Below the pieces are notes generated by a model. That model ran no database searches. It was given only the letters and a program-made list of their open reading frames with translations, and was not told the DNA's origin. From Synergistaceae bacterium (lineage in GTDB: Bacteria; Synergistota; Synergistia; Synergistales; Aminobacteriaceae), in the NCBI GenBank assembly GCA_017445205.1, contig JAFSUP010000023.1:1-59319 (forward strand): a stretch of DNA of 59,319 nucleotides. Reading direction: 5' to 3'. The translations under genes were made by a program, and so were the position numbers. Positions 27,208 through 42,210 of the stretch are shown here, piece by piece (positions within the stretch are counted from its first letter, which is position 1; each line of letters begins with the position of its first letter).

Positions 27208-28296
27208 ATGGAAAATTTCAACCCTGTTACTAAAAACTTAGTTAGCCCGCAAAAATTTATAACAATCGGTGAAATCATGTTGCGGTTGACGCCTCCTAAC
27301 TACGACAAAATCAGAGTTGCTACAAGTTTTGAAGCAAGTTACGGCGGCAGCGAAGCTAATATCGCCCTCGCTCTTGCTAATCTTGGAATCGATAGCACGT
27401 TCTTTAGCGTCGTGCCTGACAATTCCATCGGCAAAAGCGCGATTAGAATGTTACGAAGCAACGACGTCCACTGCTCGCCCGTAATCTTAACCACGCCCGA
27501 AGAAACTCCGACGCACAGACTTGGAACTTATTATCTTGAAACAGGCTACGGGATTCGCCCTAGCAAAGTCATCTATGACCGCAAGCACAGCGCGATAACA
27601 GAATTTGATTTTGATGACGTCGATATAGATGATTTACTCGACGGTTACGACTGGTTACACATGAGCGGAATCACTCCTGCTTTGTCGCCAAGCTGCGCAG
27701 AGTTTACTCTTGAATGCTTAAAAGAAGCTCGCGAAAAAAATTTAACCGTGAGTTTTGATGGCAACTTCCGAAGCACGCTGTGGACATGGGAAGAAGCCCG
27801 GGATTTTTGCACGCGCTGCCTTCCATATGTTGATGTCCTCTTCGGAATCGAACCTTATCATTTATGGCGCGATGAAGACGATCACTCAAAAGGCGATGTC
27901 AAAGACGGCGTGCCTTTCCAACCTAACTATGAACAACAAGATTTAATTTTTCAAAATTTCGTTGAGCGTTATCCGAATTTACAGTGCATTGCGCGTCATG
28001 TCCGTTACGCTCACACGGGAAGCGAAAATAGTTTGATGGCGTTCATGTGGTACAACGGACATACTTTCGAGAGTAGGCTATTCACGTTTAATATTTTGGA
28101 TCGCGTCGGAGGTGGTGATGCGTTCGCTAGCGGTTTAATATACGCGATGATGCACAAGTATAAGCCTATGGACATGATTAATTTCGCGGTTGCAAGCAGC
28201 GTGATAAAACACACGATTCACGGCGACGCAAATATTATTGACGACGTCGAGAGCATTCGCAGCCTAATGAATATGAACTATGACATTAAACGCTAA
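27208..28296 (+). CDS. PfkB-family sugar kinase, 2-keto-3-deoxygluconate kinase-like
   Basis: The ATG at 27208 follows a GGAGG RBS and the miaB stop. ITIGEIMLRLTPP and GGGDAFASG motifs are present. Confidence 0.6.
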   Translation: MENFNPVTKNLVSPQKFITIGEIMLRLTPPNYDKIRVATSFEASYGGSEANIALALANLGIDSTFFSVVPDNSIGKSAIRMLRSNDVHCSPVILTTPEETPTHRLGTYYLETGYGIRPSKVIYDRKHSAITEFDFDDVDIDDLLDGYDWLHMSGITPALSPSCAEFTLECLKEAREKNLTVSFDGNFRSTLWTWEEARDFCTRCLPYVDVLFGIEPYHLWRDEDDHSKGDVKDGVPFQPNYEQQDLIFQNFVERYPNLQCIARHVRYAHTGSENSLMAFMWYNGHTFESRLFTFNILDRVGGGDAFASGLIYAMMHKYKPMDMINFAVASSVIKHTIHGDANIIDDVESIRSLMNMNYDIKR

Positions 28297-28762
28297 CAAC
28301 GGCGATGTTATAAAAGTAAATCGCGGGCTTTACAGTCATTTCGGAGTTTACGTGAAAGCCTCAAACACGATGATTCACTACACTGGCGAGACCGGCCCGA
28401 ACGATTTTAACGGTGTTGTCCGTGAAACTTCGCTCGAAGAATTTTTGAACGGCTCTGAAAAATTTTCTGTTTGTTCATTCCCGGCGACGCCTCAAGAATT
28501 TATTGCTTCAATAATGAGCCGCAACAGTTACAGAGGGAATAAATTTTTAAGATTCGTTCAATTACTTCGCGTAATGACTGCGAATTATCATTTGTACTCC
28601 GGCGATGAAACAGTGGCGCGCGCCCGCAGCAGAATCGGACAAGGCGGTTATAATCTTGCGCTCAATAATTGCGAACACTTCGCCGTCTGGTGCAAGACAG
28701 GCGTCAAAGACTCTTCGCAAGTCGATAACGTCCTCGAAGCTCTCGCAAAACTTTTCACTTAA
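28280..28762 (+). CDS. LRAT/NC-domain (NlpC/P60 superfamily) protein
   Basis: A conserved His lies in YSHFGVYV and the catalytic motif is NCEHFAVWC. Confidence 0.65.
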   Translation: MTLNANNGDVIKVNRGLYSHFGVYVKASNTMIHYTGETGPNDFNGVVRETSLEEFLNGSEKFSVCSFPATPQEFIASIMSRNSYRGNKFLRFVQLLRVMTANYHLYSGDETVARARSRIGQGGYNLALNNCEHFAVWCKTGVKDSSQVDNVLEALAKLFT

Positions 28763-34586: not shown

Positions 34587-35154
34587 GTGTTTTTATATTT
34601 GTCAAAGAACAGAAAGAAAATCAAAGAAATTATTTTATGCTCGCTATTCGCGGCATTAATTGCTGTGGGAGCGTTCATAAAAATCCCCTGTCCCTGTTGT
34701 GCCTTTCACATTGCAATTCTTATTCACAGATATGGCCGGGTTATTGCTTGGCTCAAGATTAGGATTTATAGCGGTTATGTCATATATTGCGGTCGGTCTC
34801 GCCGGGATTCCTGTATTTGCTCAAGGCGGAGGACTGAATTATATTTTTCAGCCTAGCTTCGGTTACTTAATCGGCTTCGCGCTCGGAGCGTTCGTAACGG
34901 GGAAAATCGCGGAACGCTTCAAAAATCCCTCCTTCAAAATTTTAATCTTTGCAAACTTCGCGGGACTGCTTACGGTCTATGCGCTAGGAATGATTTATTA
35001 CTCGCTAATGAGTAATTTTTATTTAGGGACGCCGATCGGCTTGTGGCCTTTATTTTTATACTGTTTTATTTTGGCAGTGCCGGGGGATATAGCGCTGTGT
35101 GTGTTAAGCGCTTCGCTTGGGAAATTTTTAATTCCTGCTTTAAGGGAGCTGTAA
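34587..35154 (+). pseudogene. bioY: biotin transporter BioY, frameshifted at an A5/C4 homopolymer (34679-34688)
   Basis: Frame A gives KEIILCSLFAALIAVGAFIKIP and frame B gives VPVVPFTLQFLFTDMAGLLLG...GIPVFA. Removing one C restores a contiguous BioY. Confidence 0.75.
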
Positions 35155-35157
35155 AAA

Positions 35158-36129
35158 TTGAATTACTCAAAAATTTTGTGCGAGAAAGTTCTGAACGGTT
35201 ACGAAATCACGCGTGCGGAAGCGTTGAATTTATATTCACAGCCGCTTGACGAGTTATGCACGTGTGCTGACGAGATACGAAAAAAATTTTGCGCCGAAAA
35301 ATTTGACATTTGCACAATCATAAACGCTCGCAGCGGACGCTGTTCAGAGAACTGCAAGTTCTGCGCTCAATCATCGCACTACAAGACAGGCATAGAAGAA
35401 TATTCGTTATTATCGCCCGAAGAAATTACACAAAAAGCAAAAATTGATTACGCTGAAGGCGCGGTGCATTATGGCATTGTAACTTCGGGAAGAAGTCTTA
35501 ACGATGATGACGTTGAAAAAATTTGCGAGGCTGTCAAGAAAATTAAATCTGAAACAGGAATTGCGGTTTGTGCTTCGCTCGGTCTTTTGAACGAAGAGCA
35601 ATATAAAAAATTAAAGGCCGCCGGGCTTGCGCGAGTTCACAATAATCTTGAAACATCAGAAAATTATTTTCCTCAAATTTGCACGACTCATAAATTTTCA
35701 GACAAAGTCAACGCCATCAAAGCTGCTCAACGCGCCGGCCTCGAAGTCTGTAGCGGCGGGATAATCGGAATCGGCGAAAGCATTGAAGATAGAATCGACA
35801 TGGCTTTTTCATTGCGAGATTTGAAAATTGGAAGCGTACCCGTGAATATGCTCAACCCTGTTAAAGGTACGCCGTTCGCTGAAAATCAAAAATTATCTTC
35901 TGATGATTTAAGACGCACGATAGCCGTTTATAGATTTATATTGCCAAACGCGTATATCAGACTTGCTGGCGGACGTGGACTTTTGAGCGACAGGGGCAAA
36001 GGTTGCTTTTTATCCGGCGCGAACGCTTCAATCTCGGGCGACATGCTCACGACCGCAGGCATAAGCATAAAGACAGATATAAAAATGTTAGAAGAATTAG
36101 GCTTCAAAGTTCAATACTGCGATGATTAA
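35158..36129 (+). CDS. bioB: biotin synthase
   Basis: Radical-SAM motif CSENCKFC, BATS-type C-terminus and a TTG start. Confidence 0.9.
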   Translation: MNYSKILCEKVLNGYEITRAEALNLYSQPLDELCTCADEIRKKFCAEKFDICTIINARSGRCSENCKFCAQSSHYKTGIEEYSLLSPEEITQKAKIDYAEGAVHYGIVTSGRSLNDDDVEKICEAVKKIKSETGIAVCASLGLLNEEQYKKLKAAGLARVHNNLETSENYFPQICTTHKFSDKVNAIKAAQRAGLEVCSGGIIGIGESIEDRIDMAFSLRDLKIGSVPVNMLNPVKGTPFAENQKLSSDDLRRTIAVYRFILPNAYIRLAGGRGLLSDRGKGCFLSGANASISGDMLTTAGISIKTDIKMLEELGFKVQYCDD

Positions 36130-36784
36130 CAAATATATTTTCATCACCGGCACCGGCACTGACGTAGGAAAAACGTTTATCGCGGCTCTTATCTTGAAAA
36201 ATTTAATCGACAATGGCGTTAACGCTGCTTACTTCAAGGCCGCAATGAGCGGAAACTCACGCGACGAAAATAAAAATTTAATTCCCGGCGACGCTCTTTA
36301 CGTCAAAAAAATTTCGGGAAGTTCGCAAAGTTTAGAGTCGATGTGTCCGTATGTTTACGAGAGAGCTTATTCGCCACACTTGGCCGCAAAAATCGAAGGC
36401 GATCCCGTCGATTTAGATTTAGTCGTTGAAAAATTTCGTGAGCTTAAAAAAATTTATGATTGCGTCATTGTCGAAGGCTCCGGCGGGATTTTGTGCCCGA
36501 TAAGATTTGATGAAAATAAAAAAATTTGGCTAAAAGATATTATCAAAGCTCTTGGCCTAAGCTGTGTTCTTGTTGCGGACGCAGGACTAGGAACGATTAA
36601 CACCGTCGGCCTCACCGCAGAATACATGAAAGCAAATGAAATTTCACTTGACGGAATTATTTTCAATCATTTTAAAAACGGAAATATTTTGCACGAAGAT
36701 AATTTGAAGATGTGCGAGTGTTTCACAGGCTCAAAAGTCATCGCGTGTGTTCACGACAACGACAAGGAGATAATTATAAAATGA
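36122..36784 (+). CDS. bioD: dethiobiotin synthase
   Basis: ITGTGTDVGKT P-loop and EGSGG motif. Confidence 0.85.
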   Translation: MINKYIFITGTGTDVGKTFIAALILKNLIDNGVNAAYFKAAMSGNSRDENKNLIPGDALYVKKISGSSQSLESMCPYVYERAYSPHLAAKIEGDPVDLDLVVEKFRELKKIYDCVIVEGSGGILCPIRFDENKKIWLKDIIKALGLSCVLVADAGLGTINTVGLTAEYMKANEISLDGIIFNHFKNGNILHEDNLKMCECFTGSKVIACVHDNDKEIIIK

Positions 36785-37998
36785 TTTGGTATCCATACAC
36801 GCAAATGAAAAACATGAAAGCTCCTTATAAAATCATTGATGCCGAAGGAGTTTATTTATACACGGAAGACAACAAAAAATTAATTGATTCGATTTCGTCA
36901 TGGTGGAGCGTCATTCATGGTTACAAAAATCCCAAATTAAACGCCGCAATAATTTCACAGGTTGAAAATTTTTCTCACGTTATGCTTGGCGGCTTAACTC
37001 ATTCGCCGGTTGAAAAGCTCGCGAAAAAATTAAGCGAATGGTTGCCGGGAGATTTAGATTACTGTTTCTTTTCGGACTCTGGAAGCGTCGCTGTCGAAGT
37101 CGCTTTGAAAATGGCGCTACAATTTTTTATAAACCGTGGCGAAACTCGAACGATGACACTTGCTCTTGAACATGCCTATCACGGCGACACTTTCAAAGCT
37201 ATAGAAGTCGGCGACGATGAAGACTATCATTTTATATTGAAAGCACTCGGTCGGGGGCCGACTGCCAGCAAGAATCAAAATATTATTCACATTCCCGCGA
37301 AGATTGACGCGCTCGAAGAAGCATTTGAAAAATATCACGAAAAATTAAATTCTTTCATTGTCGAGCCGTTGTTACAATGCGCCGGAGGATTTCATATTCA
37401 TGATGTCGAATTTTTGCGACGAGCTAGAGAACTTTGCGACGAATATAACGTGATTTTAATTTTTGATGAAGTCGCTACGGGCTTCGGACGAACAGGGAAC
37501 AGATTTGTAGCGGATTTAGTTCAGCCGGATATTTTGATTTTAGGCAAAGCACTGACAGGCGGTTATATCGGCCACGCGGTAACAGTTGCGAACAAAAAAG
37601 TTTTCGACGGATTCTATGATGACAATCCCGAACATGCTCTAATGCACGGACCGACTTTCATGGGCAACGCTCTAGCCTGCGCGGTAGCTCTGAAGTCAAT
37701 CGAAATTTTTGAGCGCGAAAATTATATTTCAAAAATTAAAAACATCGAAAGAATTGCAAAACGCGAATTTGAAAATTTTTCTGCCGACGGCGTTAAAGAA
37801 GTAAGAATTTTAGGCGGCTGTATCTGTATCGAATGCACAAGCCCGGATTTTATAAAAGGCTTTCAGGATTTCGCATATGAGCGCGGAGTTTTCAATCGGC
37901 CATTCTTAAAATATATTTACGCAATGCCGCCTTATATTATTAAAGATGAAGAACTTTTGAAAATTTTCGACGTAATGAAAGCATGGTTCGAAAAATAA
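36781..37998 (+). CDS. bioA: adenosylmethionine-8-amino-7-oxononanoate aminotransferase
   Basis: MIWYPYTQMK start in an ATGA overlap with the bioD stop. Class-III aminotransferase motifs are present (DEVATGFGRTG, ILGKALTGG). Confidence 0.85.
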   Translation: MIWYPYTQMKNMKAPYKIIDAEGVYLYTEDNKKLIDSISSWWSVIHGYKNPKLNAAIISQVENFSHVMLGGLTHSPVEKLAKKLSEWLPGDLDYCFFSDSGSVAVEVALKMALQFFINRGETRTMTLALEHAYHGDTFKAIEVGDDEDYHFILKALGRGPTASKNQNIIHIPAKIDALEEAFEKYHEKLNSFIVEPLLQCAGGFHIHDVEFLRRARELCDEYNVILIFDEVATGFGRTGNRFVADLVQPDILILGKALTGGYIGHAVTVANKKVFDGFYDDNPEHALMHGPTFMGNALACAVALKSIEIFERENYISKIKNIERIAKREFENFSADGVKEVRILGGCICIECTSPDFIKGFQDFAYERGVFNRPFLKYIYAMPPYIIKDEELLKIFDVMKAWFEK

Positions 37999-38057: not shown

Positions 38058-38066
38058 TGATATAAT
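38058..38066 (+). promoter_or_regulatory. extended -10 promoter TGaTATAAT upstream of the radical-SAM cassette
   Basis: Read directly, 26 nt before the GGAGGA RBS and ATG. Confidence 0.45.
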
Positions 38067-38091
38067 CAAAAAAATCGGACGTGCGGAGGAG

Positions 38092-39149
38092 ATGAACTTA
38101 CATTTGAAGGATTTTGTAAAAATAAATTACTTGCGCGACAAAAAACAGGCTATCGACGAAGCAAAAAGCTTACAATCATTAATTGACGCAGAATTATATC
38201 CGGAATATTTTACAATGCCATTGACTTTGCAATTTGAGCTAACTTTAAAGTGTAATGTTAAGTGCAAACATTGCTATAATTCTTCAGGCGAAGCAAGCGC
38301 GCAACAAGACAGAATGACGCCTGAACGATGGAAAGATTTTTCACGTTCTCTTGTTAAGGGGGGGGTATCTTTCACTGCATAATCTCGGGCGGCGAACCAT
38401 TAATTTTAGGTGATAGCCTCTTCGAGATAATGGATATTCTTCACGATGATGGCACAAGTTTTTTAGTCATCTCGAACGGCTTATTAATGACTCAAGATAA
38501 AGCCGAACGCTTCAAAAAATACCGCTACAAATGGTTTCAAATTTCAATAGACGGCGCAACGCCTGAAGTACATGATAATTTCAGACAGCATAACGGAAGT
38601 TGGGACGCGGCCGTAAAATCCGTTTTCATGTTATCAAATTTAGGAATTCCCGTAACAGTTGCTCACACAGTAACGCCGCAAAATCTCAATCAGCTTGATG
38701 AAATGTGTGAATTAGCATATTCATTAGGAGCTTCAAATATAATTTGTGGAACTGTAATGCTTTCCGGAAGATCTTTTCTTAATCCCGAAATAATAATGAA
38801 TCACGAACAACGGAGTATTTTTGCAGAAAAAATTGAAAAGAACGTGCAGAAATTTTCGGGCAAAATGACCGTGCAACGCAGTGCTTCAACAAAAATACAA
38901 CTTCTTCGAGGTTTGAACACTCCGAATCAGGGCGCGATAATTCGTCCGAATGGCGATATAAGATTAGATTGCGTTGCTCCGTTCACGATCGGAAATGTTC
39001 TCGATGATGATTTCTTTGAAGTCTGGCGCAAAAAAGCTAAAGACGTTTGGAAAAGCCCTGAGATACTCAAGTATTATGAGTCTTGGGACGGAGAAGAAGA
39101 AATCACGACCGGCATTAAAAATTATTTTGATGACGACGTTAAATTATAG
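38092..39149 (+). CDS. radical-SAM peptide-maturase-like enzyme, interrupted by a frameshift at a G8 tract (38358-38365)
   Basis: CNVKCKHC lies in the upstream frame. ISGGEPLILGD, ISNGLL and PNGDIRLDCVAPFTIGNV lie in the downstream frame. The two frames join through the G run. Confidence 0.75.
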
Positions 39150-39158
39150 GAGCAAAAC

Positions 39159-39452
39159 ATGAACACGCCATACGAATTTATTAAAGGATATATTCCGATA
39201 AAGAACGCGCTCAAGACTCGTGAGAACGATTCGTTTTTAATAGTCGCTAATCGTGAAAGCAATGTTTATTATCTCAATGGAACAGGGCGCGAAATTTGGG
39301 AGAACATAGACGGAAGCAAAAGCATCAACGAAATTTGCGAATGTCTTTTAAGTGAATACGATGTGAGCCGCGAAGTGCTTGAAAGAGATTTAACAAGTTT
39401 TGTGCGCGACATGCAATGGAAAAAATTATTGCGGCTAAAGAAAGGAGGCTAA
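39159..39452 (+). CDS. PqqD-family peptide chaperone (RRE-type domain)
   Basis: YYLNGTGREIWENIDGSKSINEICECLLSEYDV...LERDLTSFVRDM matches the PqqD pattern. An AGGAG RBS is present. Confidence 0.75.
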   Translation: MNTPYEFIKGYIPIKNALKTRENDSFLIVANRESNVYYLNGTGREIWENIDGSKSINEICECLLSEYDVSREVLERDLTSFVRDMQWKKLLRLKKGG

Positions 39453-39455
39453 ATC

Positions 39456-39641
39456 ATGAAACGATATACAACGCCTAAAATAACTAGCGATTCGATTGAA
39501 GAAAGAAGTTTTGCTATACCCTTTATAGCAGGTGTTATCGCTGCTACTGTGGCGGCAAAAGTTGCTTCAAAAGCTGTAGATGCAATTTTCGAGCGTTCGG
39601 TGCCATTCAACACCAATAAACTCGAACCTGTTTTAGCATAA
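39456..39641 (+). CDS. candidate precursor peptide 1 (61 aa, Cys-free)
   Basis: An AAAGGAGG RBS precedes the ATG, 4 nt after the pqqD-like stop. It shares MK+Y..P.[IV]TS, FAxxFxAG and LE.... motifs with peptide 2. Confidence 0.6.
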   Translation: MKRYTTPKITSDSIEERSFAIPFIAGVIAATVAAKVASKAVDAIFERSVPFNTNKLEPVLA

Positions 39642-39665
39642 TTAAAAGAAAGGAGGTAGATTATC

Positions 39666-39833
39666 ATGAAGCAATATGTTTCACCGTCGGTAACGTCATC
39701 GCCGTTGATTTCATTATCGTCAAGACCGTCAGCAACATCAGAATTTGCGAGCGGATTTATGGCAGGCTTCGGTTTCGGTTCACCGCGATTGAGTCCGGAA
39801 ATGCCGCCATCTTTAGAAGCTTACGTAGAATAA
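39666..39833 (+). CDS. candidate precursor peptide 2 (55 aa, Cys-free; not in the ORF track)
   Basis: An AGGAGG RBS lies 9 nt upstream. The hand translation is MKQYVSPSVTSSPLISLSSRPSATSEFASGFMAGFGFGSPRLSPEMPPSLEAYVE. Confidence 0.55.
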   Translation: MKQYVSPSVTSSPLISLSSRPSATSEFASGFMAGFGFGSPRLSPEMPPSLEAYVE

Positions 39834-39839
39834 AAAAAT

Positions 39840-39883
39840 AAAAAAATCCCCTCACGACTTTAAATCGCGGGGGGAAATTTTTA
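39840..39883. terminator. bidirectional terminator between the peptide cassette and the convergent transporter gene
   Basis: A TCCCCTC...GCGGGGGGA stem is flanked by A and T tracts. Confidence 0.55.
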
Positions 39884-39894
39884 TGCCTGAATTT

Positions 39895-42210
39895 TTACAG
39901 CGGCGTAACTCCCAAGAGTATGCAAGCTGCAATCGAAAGAATACTGACTCCCCAAATCCACGGAAGCGAGTATTTAATATGTTCGCCAACGTCAATTTCA
40001 AGAAGTCCAAGACCTAAATACATCGCAGGCGACAACGGGGAAATCATAACGCCAACGTTCTCTGCAACGAGAAGCACGCACGCAACGTCCATAGGATTGA
40101 CGCCGAACTGTGAAGCTATCCCCACAACAACCGGCAATAATCCAAAATAGAAGCTGTCTGTTCCAAGGCACATGATTAACGGCACCGCGAAGCACGCGAC
40201 TATAAAATGTGTATAGCGTCCAAGGTCCGGAGGAATAACCGTAACGATCGCCGAAGCCATTGCGTTTAACATTCCTGTACCGCTCAAAACGCCAGTGAAA
40301 ATTCCTGCCGCGAACAACGTAACGACCATCGACATAGCCGCAACACCGTAATTTTTCAATTTCGCGTTCTGTTCTTTGAGCGATTTAATATTAAACGGTA
40401 ACGAAATCGCAAGCGCAATCATGAACACGTACGCAGGGTTGAAGCTACCGAACATCAAAGCGCAAATTACAGCAACGACGAGAATAAAATTATATGTCTG
40501 AAGAGCTGTGGAAACTTTCGGGCCATTAGCTTCGGCCTTGGCATCATCAGTTGAATCATCAGCGCTAAGTCCGAGCTTTTTAATTCTTCTCTTCTGAATG
40601 CCGCTAAGCAAGAACGCTACTACAAACGTTACTACGAGCATAGTGCCCTGTACCGGCAACAATCTGTGCCAAAGGATATTCGGGTCCGTTTCAAGAACTG
40701 TAGCAGCTCTGATTGTCGGGCCTCCCCACGGGCAGACGTTCATAACTCCGATAGCGACGCAGATTAATAACATTAAAGCGCGGCCGTCCATTTTCAATTT
40801 CTTGAACAAAGGCAACATTGCTGTAATCGTGATAATGAAAGTCGTTGCGCCGGAGCCGTCAAGATGTCCGATAATACCAACGGCAGCCGTGGCAAGCATT
40901 ACGAGCGTTACGTTAGTTCCAGCTTTCTTGATTAAGAAGTTGACGATGGGGTCAAAAACTCCCTGATCGCTCATCAATGAGAAGAATGAAATCGAGAACA
41001 CGAACAGCGAGACCGTCGAAACCATTTTTGAAATTCCTGACGCCGCGAACTTGTTTACAGCCATCGGATCGAAGCCTGCAATAAGAGCCGCGATTGTCGG
41101 CAATAAAATAAATGCGATTGGTGGGATTACGACTTTCTTAATTAAGCAGAAAATCAAAACTATGACCATCACGAAGCCAATAACCGCGAGTTTCGTTGAA
41201 GGAGCCGCCTTCTTCGCGGGGGCCTTCGCGGGCTTCAACATATCGGTGAAAGTTTTGTATTCTTGGGTGAGAGTTTCCGTATAGTCTAAGCCGTTCGTGT
41301 AGCCGGGACGTTCATCATAGCCGCCCTGCTGCAAAAAGTCGTTCCATTCGGGCGTCCGTGTAGCGTTCAAGATGGCTCCTTCGAGAGCGTTAATAGCGGA
41401 TTCCGGCGTGCCCTTCTTGGCAAAAATTCCGCGCTCCGAACCTAAGAATGCGTTAATGCCTAACTCATTTGAGCATTCAACATTCGGATAACGATTCATT
41501 CTCTTTTCAGCGAGAACTAACAAAGGAATAATTTCGCCGGCTTCAATTAACGGTGTAATTTCCTGAGTACCTGTTACCATTAAATCAATCTGACCACGGA
41601 TTAAAGCTTCTGTCATGCCTGCGCCCGTCGGATAATCAACTTCGAGAATGTTTAATCCCTCGGTAGCCTGCTGGAAAGACAAACCGTCAACGCCAATTCG
41701 AGTCAACATTCCGATCGAGATGCTATACGGGTGAGCTTTGACATAATCACGAAGTTCGCTGAAAGATTTGTAGCCTCGTTCTTCCATTGCACGTTTTGAA
41801 GTCGCGATGACGTCGATAGCGTGAACAAGCCTTGCGACAGGGACGAACTCATCAAGAAATTTGAATTTCATTTCGCCCATTATGTCTTGAATTAAAAGAC
41901 TTTGTGTGCCAAGCAGGAACGTGTAACCGTCAGCTTCATGTTCTTTTACGTAGGCTGCGCCGTTCGATCCATTACCGCCGGTAACGTTAAGAATTTCGAC
42001 TTCTTGCCCGATCTCTTTTTCGAGCAACGGCTTTAATGCTCTTATAGTAGCGTCAGCTCCGCCGCCTTCACCCCACGGACAAACGATCGTGATTTTGTGG
42101 TCGAACTTGAAACTAGCAGGTGCGGCTTCTGTGTCAGCGGCCATTACTGCGGACACGCACAAAGTTAGCGCAAGAATAGCAGTGAGGAAAATAGATAAAA
42201 ATCTCTTCAC
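39895..42210 (-). CDS. fusion protein: TctC/Bug-type periplasmic binding domain plus CitMHS-type permease
   Basis: The N-terminus has a signal peptide and ITIVCPWGEGGGADATIRAL...NVTGGNGSNG (TctC-like). A KPAKAPAKKAAPS linker follows. The C-terminal half is polytopic with HLDGSGATTFIITI and NVCPWGGPTIRAA (CitMHS-like). Confidence 0.6.
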   Translation of the reverse strand: MKRFLSIFLTAILALTLCVSAVMAADTEAAPASFKFDHKITIVCPWGEGGGADATIRALKPLLEKEIGQEVEILNVTGGNGSNGAAYVKEHEADGYTFLLGTQSLLIQDIMGEMKFKFLDEFVPVARLVHAIDVIATSKRAMEERGYKSFSELRDYVKAHPYSISIGMLTRIGVDGLSFQQATEGLNILEVDYPTGAGMTEALIRGQIDLMVTGTQEITPLIEAGEIIPLLVLAEKRMNRYPNVECSNELGINAFLGSERGIFAKKGTPESAINALEGAILNATRTPEWNDFLQQGGYDERPGYTNGLDYTETLTQEYKTFTDMLKPAKAPAKKAAPSTKLAVIGFVMVIVLIFCLIKKVVIPPIAFILLPTIAALIAGFDPMAVNKFAASGISKMVSTVSLFVFSISFFSLMSDQGVFDPIVNFLIKKAGTNVTLVMLATAAVGIIGHLDGSGATTFIITITAMLPLFKKLKMDGRALMLLICVAIGVMNVCPWGGPTIRAATVLETDPNILWHRLLPVQGTMLVVTFVVAFLLSGIQKRRIKKLGLSADDSTDDAKAEANGPKVSTALQTYNFILVVAVICALMFGSFNPAYVFMIALAISLPFNIKSLKEQNAKLKNYGVAAMSMVVTLFAAGIFTGVLSGTGMLNAMASAIVTVIPPDLGRYTHFIVACFAVPLIMCLGTDSFYFGLLPVVVGIASQFGVNPMDVACVLLVAENVGVMISPLSPAMYLGLGLLEIDVGEHIKYSLPWIWGVSILSIAACILLGVTPL

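Follow-up and report, generated by a model that had tools for sequence, protein, structure and literature searches.

Contig JAFSUP010000023.1 of a Synergistaceae bacterium (assembly GCA_017445205.1; 59,319 nt, analysed whole and called the window below) carries a small cassette at positions 38092-39833 of the forward strand, with genes for a radical S-adenosylmethionine (rSAM) enzyme, for a peptide-binding protein of the PqqD type and for two small peptides. We read the cassette, with a probability of about 0.65, as belonging to a conserved and uncurated family of leader-guided rSAM peptide-maturation systems, of which the window would hold a rearranged minimal form with the enzyme put out of frame by a hypermutable poly-G tract. 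An earlier note, made from the sequence alone, had described four products here, namely an rSAM enzyme with the motifs CNVKCKHC and ISGGEPL, a PqqD-family protein and open reading frames (ORFs) of 61 and 55 amino acids (aa). All of these were found; the rSAM gene, however, was split over two frames at a run of eight G (G8). The features of the locus are as follows.

38058-38066, forward strand: extended -10-like element TGATATAAT, a putative promoter, by direct sequence reading
38085-38091, forward strand: ribosome-binding site GGAGGAG upstream of the rSAM ATG (38092), by direct sequence reading
38092-38382, forward strand: 5' part of the rSAM gene, from the start codon through CNVKCKHC (CxxxCxxC) to the G tract, with an out-of-frame stop at 38380-38382, from the ORF list
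38358-38365, forward strand: homopolymeric G8 tract, a candidate slipped-strand switch, from the sequence and the tract lengths of relatives
38367-39149, forward strand: 3' part of the rSAM gene with IFHCIISGGEPL (SAM-binding GGE motif), the rest of the barrel and the vestigial SPASM/twitch hairpin RPNGDIRLDC, from the repaired translation
39159-39452, forward strand: PqqD-family protein of 97 aa, a discrete recognition element (RRE) of peptides made by the ribosome and modified after translation (RiPPs), by PF05402
39456-39641, forward strand: peptide 1, 61 aa, with MKRYTTPKI leader, AIPF motif, hydrophobic Ala/Val-rich helix and KLEPVLA tail, by the peptide hidden Markov model (HMM)
39666-39833, forward strand: peptide 2, 55 aa, with MKQYVSPSV leader, Ser/Pro-rich linker, SEFASGFMAGFGFGSPR core and SLEAYVE tail, by the peptide HMM
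39836-39884, no strand: G+C-rich hairpin (39847-39875) with flanking A-run and T-run, a putative bidirectional intrinsic terminator, by RNA folding

Poly-G tract and reading frame of the rSAM gene

No single ORF covered the rSAM gene. CNVKCKHC was located in the ORF at 38092-38382 and ISGGEPL in an ORF of another frame at 38430-39149, the 3' part being shifted by -1 against the frame of the 5' part. Addition of one G to the G8 run, which is the sole G or C run of at least 7 in the window, gave a continuous rSAM protein of 352 aa. The in-frame tract lengths are the multiples of three, that is G9, G6 or G12. Contigs of the same clade were fetched through four truncated protein clusters that were 85-100% identical in aa sequence to the window rSAM, giving 14 contigs in total with the following tracts.

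G7: L098 and L099
G8: the window, L101 and L102
G10: L096
G11: L097, L100 and L103-L108

The rSAM gene was broken at the same site in all 14 contigs. None of them had a tract of a multiple of three, and the best full-length protein match was only 72% identical. More distant intact homologues read CAC GGC GGG ATA at the tract site, with no homopolymer. Contigs that were 98.3-98.7% identical in DNA had different tract lengths (G11 vs G7, G10 vs G11), while G8 was obtained three times, G7 twice and G11 eight times from independent samples and assemblers. The recurrence of the same lengths makes random assembly error unlikely.

All four genes of the cassette showed purifying selection, with ratios of nonsynonymous to synonymous substitution rates (dN/dS) of 0.06-0.28 at dS of about 1. 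Between clade lineages, the 261 codons of the rSAM gene after the tract gave 0.06-0.08 at dS 0.85-1.4, and the values were 0.07-0.09 for the PqqD gene, 0.18-0.28 for peptide 1 and 0.20-0.23 for peptide 2. The N-terminal value for the window is invalid owing to a one-codon offset before the tract; selection on the rSAM gene was therefore judged from the C-terminal 261 codons and from comparisons of sister lineages, in which the 5' part gave a dN/dS of 0.05 (L096 vs L097/L098). No other frameshift or stop was found in the rSAM gene in five clade lineages. A long-dead rSAM pseudogene is excluded by purifying selection at dS of about 1. The tract is intragenic, variable in length between close genomes and frame-determining, as the repeats of phase-variable loci are, and its pattern fits a simple-sequence contingency locus, a hypermutable switch rather than a dead gene. 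This variable tract with its frameshift, together with the probable loss of the auxiliary cluster described below, are the most informative features that were absent from the earlier note.

A second poly-G tract (G6, G7 or G8) was seen within the first peptide's ribosome-binding site, where it forms the 3' end of the PqqD gene, in contigs 99.4-99.9% identical (L103:1564-1570, L104:1553-1558, L105:1565-1572 and L106:1976-1982). Its length alters both the PqqD C-terminus (98, 100 or 114 aa) and the spacing from the ribosome-binding site to the ATG. The window has AAAGGAGGC at this position in place of poly-G.

Domains, fold and cysteines of the rSAM enzyme

After frameshift repair, and only then, the enzyme showed the features of the radical SAM superfamily: it matched PF04055 (E = 8.2e-26) and had the CxxxCxxC and GGE motifs and an rSAM-like model. 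The SPASM-like tail described in the earlier note proved vestigial, since the repaired protein scored 17.7 bits against PF13186 (SPASM) where the cutoff is 21.5. By PF13186/TIGR04085 it falls outside the SPASM/twitch subfamily; the hairpin fold is kept and one cluster cysteine, C294, is left. In NCBIfam (June 2026) it was below the cutoff of every curated family. The top score was that of the mycofactocin maturase (TIGR03962), 107.8 bits vs 265, followed by AhbD, NirJ, AlbA, PqqE and SkfB.

An alignment of 28 homologues was used to find conserved cysteines. Those of CxxxCxxC (C54/C58/C61), C96 and C294 were invariant and C206 was nearly so. C96 is located three residues before SGGEPL, itself invariant, and C294 within RPNGDIRLDC. 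In a profile alignment to SkfB, C294 corresponded to the cysteine of the twitch hairpin (GYVTPC), in the GX4-5C position, and the first cysteine position of the CX9-15GX4C motif was Asn in the rSAM family. No CX2CX5CX3C motif was present in the family in either alignment. The AlphaFold2 model of the repaired protein had a predicted local distance difference test (pLDDT) score of 93.5, and its best matches in the PDB were SkfB (6efn; Foldseek E = 3e-17, TM 0.66) and SuiB. Further matches were BlsE, viperin, PqqE, anSME, DesII, CteB and EpeE.

As judged from sequence only, the enzyme is a SPASM/twitch-derived scaffold in which all cluster cysteines but one have been lost, and it is probably without an auxiliary cluster. 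Because the auxiliary-cluster cysteines are lacking, it is disfavoured to extend SPASM-type cross-linking chemistry to this enzyme.

PqqD protein and proposed leader recognition

The assignment of the 97-aa protein to the PqqD family was confirmed by PF05402 (E = 1.2e-17, 64.4 bits vs a cutoff of 23.4, profile positions 4-67 of 67). Its best NCBIfam model was the lasso PqqD chaperone (39.8 vs a cutoff of 80). Both window peptides start with YxxPx[I/V] (MKRYTTPKI and MKQYVSPSV). In lasso pathways, discrete PqqD-type RREs bind leaders through the motif [Y/W]xxPx[L/V/I/F/A] (PMC13381572; see also PMC12710340).

The two peptides and their family

Peptide 1 and peptide 2 matched the peptide HMM with E values of 6.6e-10 and 4.4e-08, respectively, and were the only two matches in the whole window. 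The profile gave 173 matches in 11,934 six-frame segments, every one on the strand of the rSAM gene. A simple leader pattern found 151 candidates vs 31 in reversed-sequence controls, when 80 further metagenome loci and 2 viral-contig loci were included. The related Synergistaceae loci had the order rSAM, peptide, PqqD and then one to three peptides, all peptides starting MK(K)Y..P, and the same was true of Phascolarctobacterium-type, Ruminococcus and Brachyspira loci. The conserved positions are listed below.

Y4 and P7: 92 of 92 peptides, as required by the collecting search pattern
Hydrophobic position 9: I, V or L in 80 of 92
G-φ-φ-P motif, located after another 10-25 residues: Pro in 85 of 92
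Ala/Gly-rich segment with AAGxAAG at its end: Gly in 77 of 92
Leu close to the C-terminus: 76 of 92

A transmembrane-grade hydrophobic stretch with charged flanks on both sides was found in 70% of the family peptides. Any cysteine was present in only 33%, at no conserved position, and the window peptides contain neither Cys nor Trp. The earlier note was right that both are Cys-free and that they lack the motifs of known classes (no E-x3-Y, no KxxxW, no terminal GVY), and the family-wide scarcity of cysteine bears out its view that thioether chemistry is unlikely.

Peptide 1 fitted the family pattern, with a maximum Kyte-Doolittle hydropathy over 19 residues of 1.98 and a helix at residues 13-48 in a low-confidence model. 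Peptide 2 has the family leader and the C-terminal Leu; a Ser/Pro-rich linker and a SEFxSGFMxGFGFGS core replace the hydrophobic segment, and the peptide is not hydrophobic (maximum hydropathy 0.42). The core is conserved among the clade relatives. It is peculiar to peptide 2 of the window clade, so the Phe-rich core that the earlier note offered as a cross-link target does not hold for the family.

Among 1.84 billion proteins the peptide family had 267 representatives at 50% identity, none of them named, and the members were all small (44-102 aa among the 150 listed). Public records label them hypothetical. Pfam and NCBIfam scans of ten peptides gave no significant family, the weak holin-like matches below cutoff being due to hydrophobic composition. 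In Ruminococcus-type peptides the poly-Ala length differed between near-identical contigs (75, 73 and 72 aa), and that of L051 was frameshifted into a Cys-rich tail (L051:1469-1627, L052:1373-1600, L053:1255-1476, L054:2099-2317). This suggests that the GCN-repeat coding region of these peptides is itself unstable.

Distribution and conserved gene content

Homologues of the rSAM enzyme formed 687 clusters at E <= 1e-10 among 5.8 billion protein clusters, under generic names only, such as 'radical SAM protein'. Full-length homologues among the matches listed were about 341-375 aa long and 50-72% identical. Named sources were Synergistaceae metagenome-assembled genomes, Brachyspira pulli, uncultured Ruminococcus, Epulopiscium and Phascolarctobacterium. 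Four related loci were in Synergistales/Synergistaceae genomes from deer and goat rumen metagenomes, and the Phascolarctobacterium-type enzyme was found in 341 index blocks of public assemblies. In all, 109 loci were collected, of which 95 had a PqqD gene. They were grouped at 85% rSAM identity into 47 lineages, with cassettes in Synergistaceae, a Phascolarctobacterium-type lineage, Ruminococcus, Brachyspira and Epulopiscium. The genes that recur beside the rSAM gene are given below by lineage.

PqqD: 37 of 47, most of the others being truncated contigs
CxxCxxCC protein of about 90 aa (PF03692, E = 2.5e-9): 28 of 47
XRE-type helix-turn-helix (HTH) regulator: 8 of 47
WYL regulator: 6 of 47
DUF1232: 6 of 47
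LRAT-like: 5 of 47

Besides PqqD and CxxCxxCC, no co-occurring gene was present in more than 8 of the 47 lineages. No protease, transporter or immunity gene recurred in their neighbourhoods, in agreement with the earlier note, which had seen no protease or transporter in the window cassette. That note had also suggested an undescribed RiPP-type rSAM system. This is supported by the rSAM enzyme, which reaches no curated family cutoff, and by the homologous peptides that adjoin rSAM and PqqD genes across phyla; both results go against the refuting conditions that the note had set. The window unit is not the canonical form of the family: 22 of 32 complete lineages add the CxxCxxCC gene, and 29 of 32 put a peptide gene between rSAM and PqqD. 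The commonest architecture (16 of 32) was CxxCxxCC-rSAM-peptide-PqqD-peptide. The order rSAM-PqqD-peptide-peptide was seen in the window clade only, and no CxxCxxCC gene was found anywhere in the window.

The CxxCxxCC protein, with its putative Zn- or Fe-chelating domain, adjoins the rSAM gene and often overlaps its start codon (for example L001:4348-4626, L005:4723-5004 and L012:6971-7276). It may act in trans as a partner for metal or redox chemistry, and the window clade has lost it. An LRAT-family gene (PF04970, an NlpC/P60-like thiol enzyme) is located in the window at 28280-28762 of the forward strand, 10 kb from the cassette and after a PfkB kinase gene. It was 62% identical to an LRAT-like gene of the Synergistaceae loci L001-L003, which there comes directly after the last of the peptide genes, its start abutting or overlapping the peptide stop. 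The LRAT-like protein could serve as a leader peptidase or acyltransferase specific to the lineage, or its place beside the peptides could be a coincidence.

In the Phascolarctobacterium-type locus, the CxxCxxCC gene has an XRE-type HTH gene before it; in Synergistaceae, a WYL-WCX regulator comes after the cassettes. One Phascolarctobacterium-type cassette is followed by an IIGP-like GTPase gene, with cas2 and cas1 about 4 kb away (L005:7473-8417 and L005:10451-11050). Neighbours in some loci were of this defence-island-like kind, and PADLOC found nothing specific. A reading of the cassette as a defence system was rejected: PADLOC gave only a generic viperin-core match, and nothing for PqqD, CxxCxxCC, LRAT or DUF1232. 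The prokaryotic viperin (pVip) assignment was rejected as well, as the matches were generic ones to the rSAM core (residues 47-200) and the NCBIfam viperin model scored 61.6 vs 180. Of the two viral-contig loci, one was amid sortase/LPxTG surface-protein genes and the other by prophage-like genes, and neither puts the cassette inside a phage.

Flanking elements and genomic context

The cassette lies between bioA upstream (ending at 37998) and a convergent gene for a 771-aa TctC/TctA-type transporter downstream (ending at 39895). The earlier note had given it a promoter of its own. The element TGATATAAT is indeed present, but no -35 hexamer was found at 16-18 nt from it, and the element is not kept in relatives that have the cassette in another context. 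A bidirectional terminator had also been claimed, and the hairpin between the cassette and the convergent gene does fold (-19 kcal/mol, z = -3.2). A consensus promoter/terminator scanner, however, reported neither site. Both elements are plausible and putative. Within the cassette, the ribosome-binding site AAAGGAGG precedes each of the two small ORFs, and the gene spacings are 9, 3 and 24 nt, both as previously described. An Rfam search over the whole window gave a single tRNA far from the cassette and no riboswitch or leader RNA. In a repeat search around the cassette, no direct or inverted repeats were found at its flanks, as would be expected at the edge of a mobile element.

Immediately upstream, at 34699-37998 of the forward strand, is a biotin operon encoding a BioY-like membrane protein, BioB, BioD and BioA. 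BioB is an rSAM enzyme too; the operon is unlinked to the cassette in relatives and forms an ordinary context. Downstream, at 39895-42210 of the reverse strand, one 771-aa ORF fuses an N-terminal TctC-like substrate-binding domain to a TctA/CitMHS-like membrane domain. By its predicted domains it is a fused transporter of the tripartite-tricarboxylate type; its gene converges on the cassette and has the putative terminator in common with it. In two clade contigs whose rSAM protein is about 85% identical (L097:1-150 and L098:1-140), the cassette is located just 3' of a tRNA 3' end (…GGTTCGAATCCCCTTATCTCCACCA) and not after bioA. This difference from the window indicates that the cassette has moved between chromosomal sites within the clade.

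Proposed working and alternative explanations

We propose that the discrete PqqD protein would bind the N-terminal YxxPx[I/L/V] of both peptides, by analogy with lasso RREs, and would present the peptide to the rSAM enzyme. As its fold and gene linkage suggest, the enzyme would cleave SAM at the [4Fe-4S] cluster of CxxxCxxC and abstract a hydrogen atom from the peptide. Oxidative cross-linking maturases of the SPASM/twitch scaffold use auxiliary clusters. Because this enzyme keeps one SPASM/twitch cysteine and probably has no auxiliary cluster, a redox-neutral outcome is the more likely one; L-to-D epimerisation in or next to the G-φ-φ-P / Ala-Gly-rich segment might be an example, and the invariant lone Cys294 is a candidate re-donor of the hydrogen atom. 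Both suggestions are speculative, and the redox-neutral outcome has some chance of being correct without being one to count on. The products would be small amphipathic or membrane-inserting peptides, usually paired and without a dedicated protease or exporter. Slipped-strand phase variation would set the state of the enzyme, G8 being off and a multiple of three on; the variability of the tract and the selection on the genes were observed, and switching would account for them.

Several points weigh against this reading. All 14 clade contigs are off and no on variant was seen, which is not obviously expected of a freely switching locus, although with only about five independent lineage/tract states sampled, the missing on allele carries no statistical significance. 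Homopolymer lengths can be miscalled in short-read metagenome assemblies. Peptide 2 is without the G-φ-φ-P motif and the hydrophobic segment of its family. The epimerisation proposal derives solely from the missing auxiliary-cluster cysteines, as they appear in the protein sequence, and the CxxCxxCC partner of most lineages, possibly an Fe-S protein, could supply redox in trans and so permit oxidative cross-links. Without a protease or exporter, the system may not be a classical secreted RiPP pathway.

Oxidative chemistry is the main chemical rival to a redox-neutral outcome. The same system would then make a C-C, C-O or C-N cross-link or carry out a dehydrogenation or decarboxylation, for example near the C-terminal Leu motif, with the CxxCxxCC protein or, in the window clade, a housekeeping ferredoxin as electron acceptor in trans, a role that normally falls to the SPASM clusters. 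The CxxCxxCC gene directly adjoins the rSAM gene in 28 of 47 lineages, the nearest relatives SkfB, SuiB, MftC, PqqE and AlbA all make oxidative cross-links, and the C-terminal motif of the peptides is conserved, as in MftA. The window clade, however, has no CxxCxxCC gene in 59 kb and its cassette is still under purifying selection, and no aromatic, Lys or Cys pair of the kind seen in known cross-links is conserved across the family; we consider this chemistry unlikely. A different rival concerns the purpose of the peptides, which may be small membrane proteins of the producer itself, the modification tuning a cell-autonomous membrane or surface property and not yielding a secreted product. This would explain both the stochastic switching and the missing protease, exporter and immunity genes (0 recurrent in 47 lineages). 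It is also in line with the transmembrane-grade segments and charged flanks of 70% of the family peptides, with the conservation of their termini and middle, where usually the leader is conserved and the core varies, and with the surface determinants that poly-G switches classically govern (PMC6321876). General Sec/ABC systems and housekeeping peptidases could nevertheless process and export the peptides, paired peptides with hydrophobic Ala/Gly-rich cores also resemble two-component bacteriocins, and peptide 2 of the window is not hydrophobic. We hold this explanation to be possible and on the doubtful side. Because protease, exporter and immunity genes are missing, the peptides are conserved over their full length and the cores are membrane-like, a cell-associated role is as plausible as that of a secreted bacteriocin.

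The broken frame admits explanations other than a DNA switch. Frame could be restored by -1 ribosomal frameshifting or by transcriptional slippage (+1 G), giving constitutive low expression of the rSAM enzyme. The downstream frame is indeed -1 relative to the start frame, GGG GGG permits perfect tRNA re-pairing after a -1 slip, and a single -1 event, or the insertion of one G, would put right exactly the G8 and G11 states, which make up 11 of the 14 contigs; the absence of an in-frame allele among full-length homologues, the best of them 72% identical, agrees with this. The G7 and G10 alleles would need another shift, however, no stimulatory structure was seen downstream, where no search aimed at one was made, and tract lengths that differ between 98-99% identical strains point to instability at the DNA level, which makes recoding quite unlikely as the explanation. 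The break could instead be an artefact, a miscalled homopolymer with a true G9, or decay, with an rSAM pseudogene in a cassette remnant. Homopolymers are error-prone and every sampled clade member is out of frame, but the same lengths were obtained from independent samples and assemblers, the other long ORFs of the window are intact, and the rSAM gene combines a dN/dS of 0.06-0.08 at dS 0.85-1.4 with no other frameshift or stop in five lineages. Artefact or decay is improbable on these grounds. It is harder still to believe that the rSAM/PqqD pair acts on another substrate and that the small ORFs do not code or have nothing to do with it. Nothing direct speaks for this idea, and databases give no annotation of the peptides, whereas across phyla the peptide family keeps strictly to the strand of the rSAM gene and to its place beside it, and the small ORFs show purifying selection and an RRE-type leader motif.

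The reading that we prefer is that of a leader-guided peptide-maturation family whose window member would be switched by its G tract. A stronger form of it would be a new RiPP class, in which an auxiliary-cluster-free rSAM enzyme and a lasso-type RRE place an unseen, possibly stereo-inverting modification on an Ala/Gly-rich membrane peptide pair that needs no dedicated protease or exporter, in one Synergistaceae clade under poly-G control; we hold this to be possible but less likely than not. Cassettes with rSAM and RRE are a main source of new peptide chemistry, and the present family, which departs from the characterised ones on several points, is common in anaerobes of the human gut, rumen and termite gut. 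Its enzyme clade and peptides belong to no curated family, and no characterised member was found. Owing to the loss of SPASM/twitch cysteines in an SkfB-like scaffold, the reasoning that SPASM means cross-link is not applicable, and the family is a good place to seek radical chemistry on peptides that is new or redox-neutral. With protease and exporter missing, one must ask what purpose the peptides serve. A hypervariable G tract kept in a maturase gene under selection, while about one synonymous substitution accrued per site, would bring Synergistaceae and peptide maturation into the biology of contingency loci. If true, this would be the first phase-variable RiPP pathway, in which bacteria stochastically alternate between modified and unmodified membrane peptides.

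Comparison with known systems

No published description of the cassette family was found in literature searches on rSAM/RiPP systems, alanine-rich precursors, YxxP leaders, the rumen, EpeE epimerase, PF03692 and phase-variable rSAM. Catalogues of about 15,000 RRE-associated rSAM enzymes exist (PMC10288494), and they probably include members of the family as unnamed nodes.

The poly-G contingency loci of Campylobacter, Neisseria and Helicobacter resemble the tract in having an intragenic, frame-setting G tract, here of 7-11, that varies between near-identical strains. Simple-sequence contingency loci of the poly-G kind classically control surface determinants (PMC6321876). The present locus differs from them in its host, a Synergistaceae-like gut or rumen bacterium, and in its gene, a peptide maturase; it is known from separate genomes, all of them off.

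The rSAM epimerases (PoyD, OspD and the epipeptide enzyme EpeE/YydG) act on hydrophobic peptides by Cα-H abstraction, with a cysteine that re-donates hydrogen, as the window enzyme would do under the epimerisation hypothesis, and EpeE was among the structural matches. There is no specific sequence relation, however: the EpeE HMM gave E = 2e-6 over the rSAM core only, and EpeE has a twitch cluster. The proteusin epimerases PoyD and OspD are without an auxiliary cluster, and EpeE uses a cysteine as hydrogen donor (PMC13012085).

SkfB/AlbA-type sactisynthases, which act on ribosomal peptides, are the closest relatives in structure and sequence (SkfB HMM E = 8e-28). In both SkfB-type enzymes and the window enzyme, the barrel is followed by a β-hairpin with Cys at the G-x4/5-C position. 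Unlike in SkfB/AlbA, the other auxiliary-cluster cysteines are absent, the RRE is a protein of its own where theirs is fused to the N-terminus, and no Cys donor is conserved in the substrates. The cassette does not qualify as a sactipeptide or ranthipeptide system, there being no conserved Cys donors and the AlbA, SkfB, PapB and StsB models scoring far below cutoff. Neither does it qualify as a streptide-type (KxxxW) or other Trp/Lys cross-linked rSAM RiPP system, as the peptides have no Trp and WgkB scored 80.6 vs 650.

Lasso pathways resemble the family in the leader motif, YxxPx[I/L/V] at residues 4-9 of every family peptide, and in a PqqD protein that is nearest to the lasso chaperone model, though below its cutoff. 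They differ in that no B2 protease or C cyclase is present, either in the window cassette or in the neighbourhoods of the 47 lineages, and in that the partner enzyme here is an rSAM.

MftA/B/C and PqqA/D/E follow the same three-part logic of a small peptide, a discrete PqqD-family chaperone and an rSAM enzyme. The likeness to mycofactocin extends to MftC as the top NCBIfam match and to a conserved C-terminal motif of the peptide in both. Unlike in mycofactocin, the MftC score is 107.8 vs 265, the peptides end in ...KLEPVLA and ...SLEAYVE and not in GVY, and MftD/E/F are absent. Unlike in the PQQ pathway, the scores are 85.1 vs 381 for PqqE and 33.4 vs 46 for PqqD, the peptides have no E-x3-Y, and PqqB/C are absent. 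The SPASM clusters of MftC and PqqE are missing in the window enzyme. The cassette fails the defining tests of each named family; its precursor genes are co-localised and co-conserved with the enzyme and the RRE and carry a recognisable leader motif, as is general for RiPP systems, and we class it as a probable RiPP-type maturation system with rSAM and RRE, built like MftABC and PqqADE.

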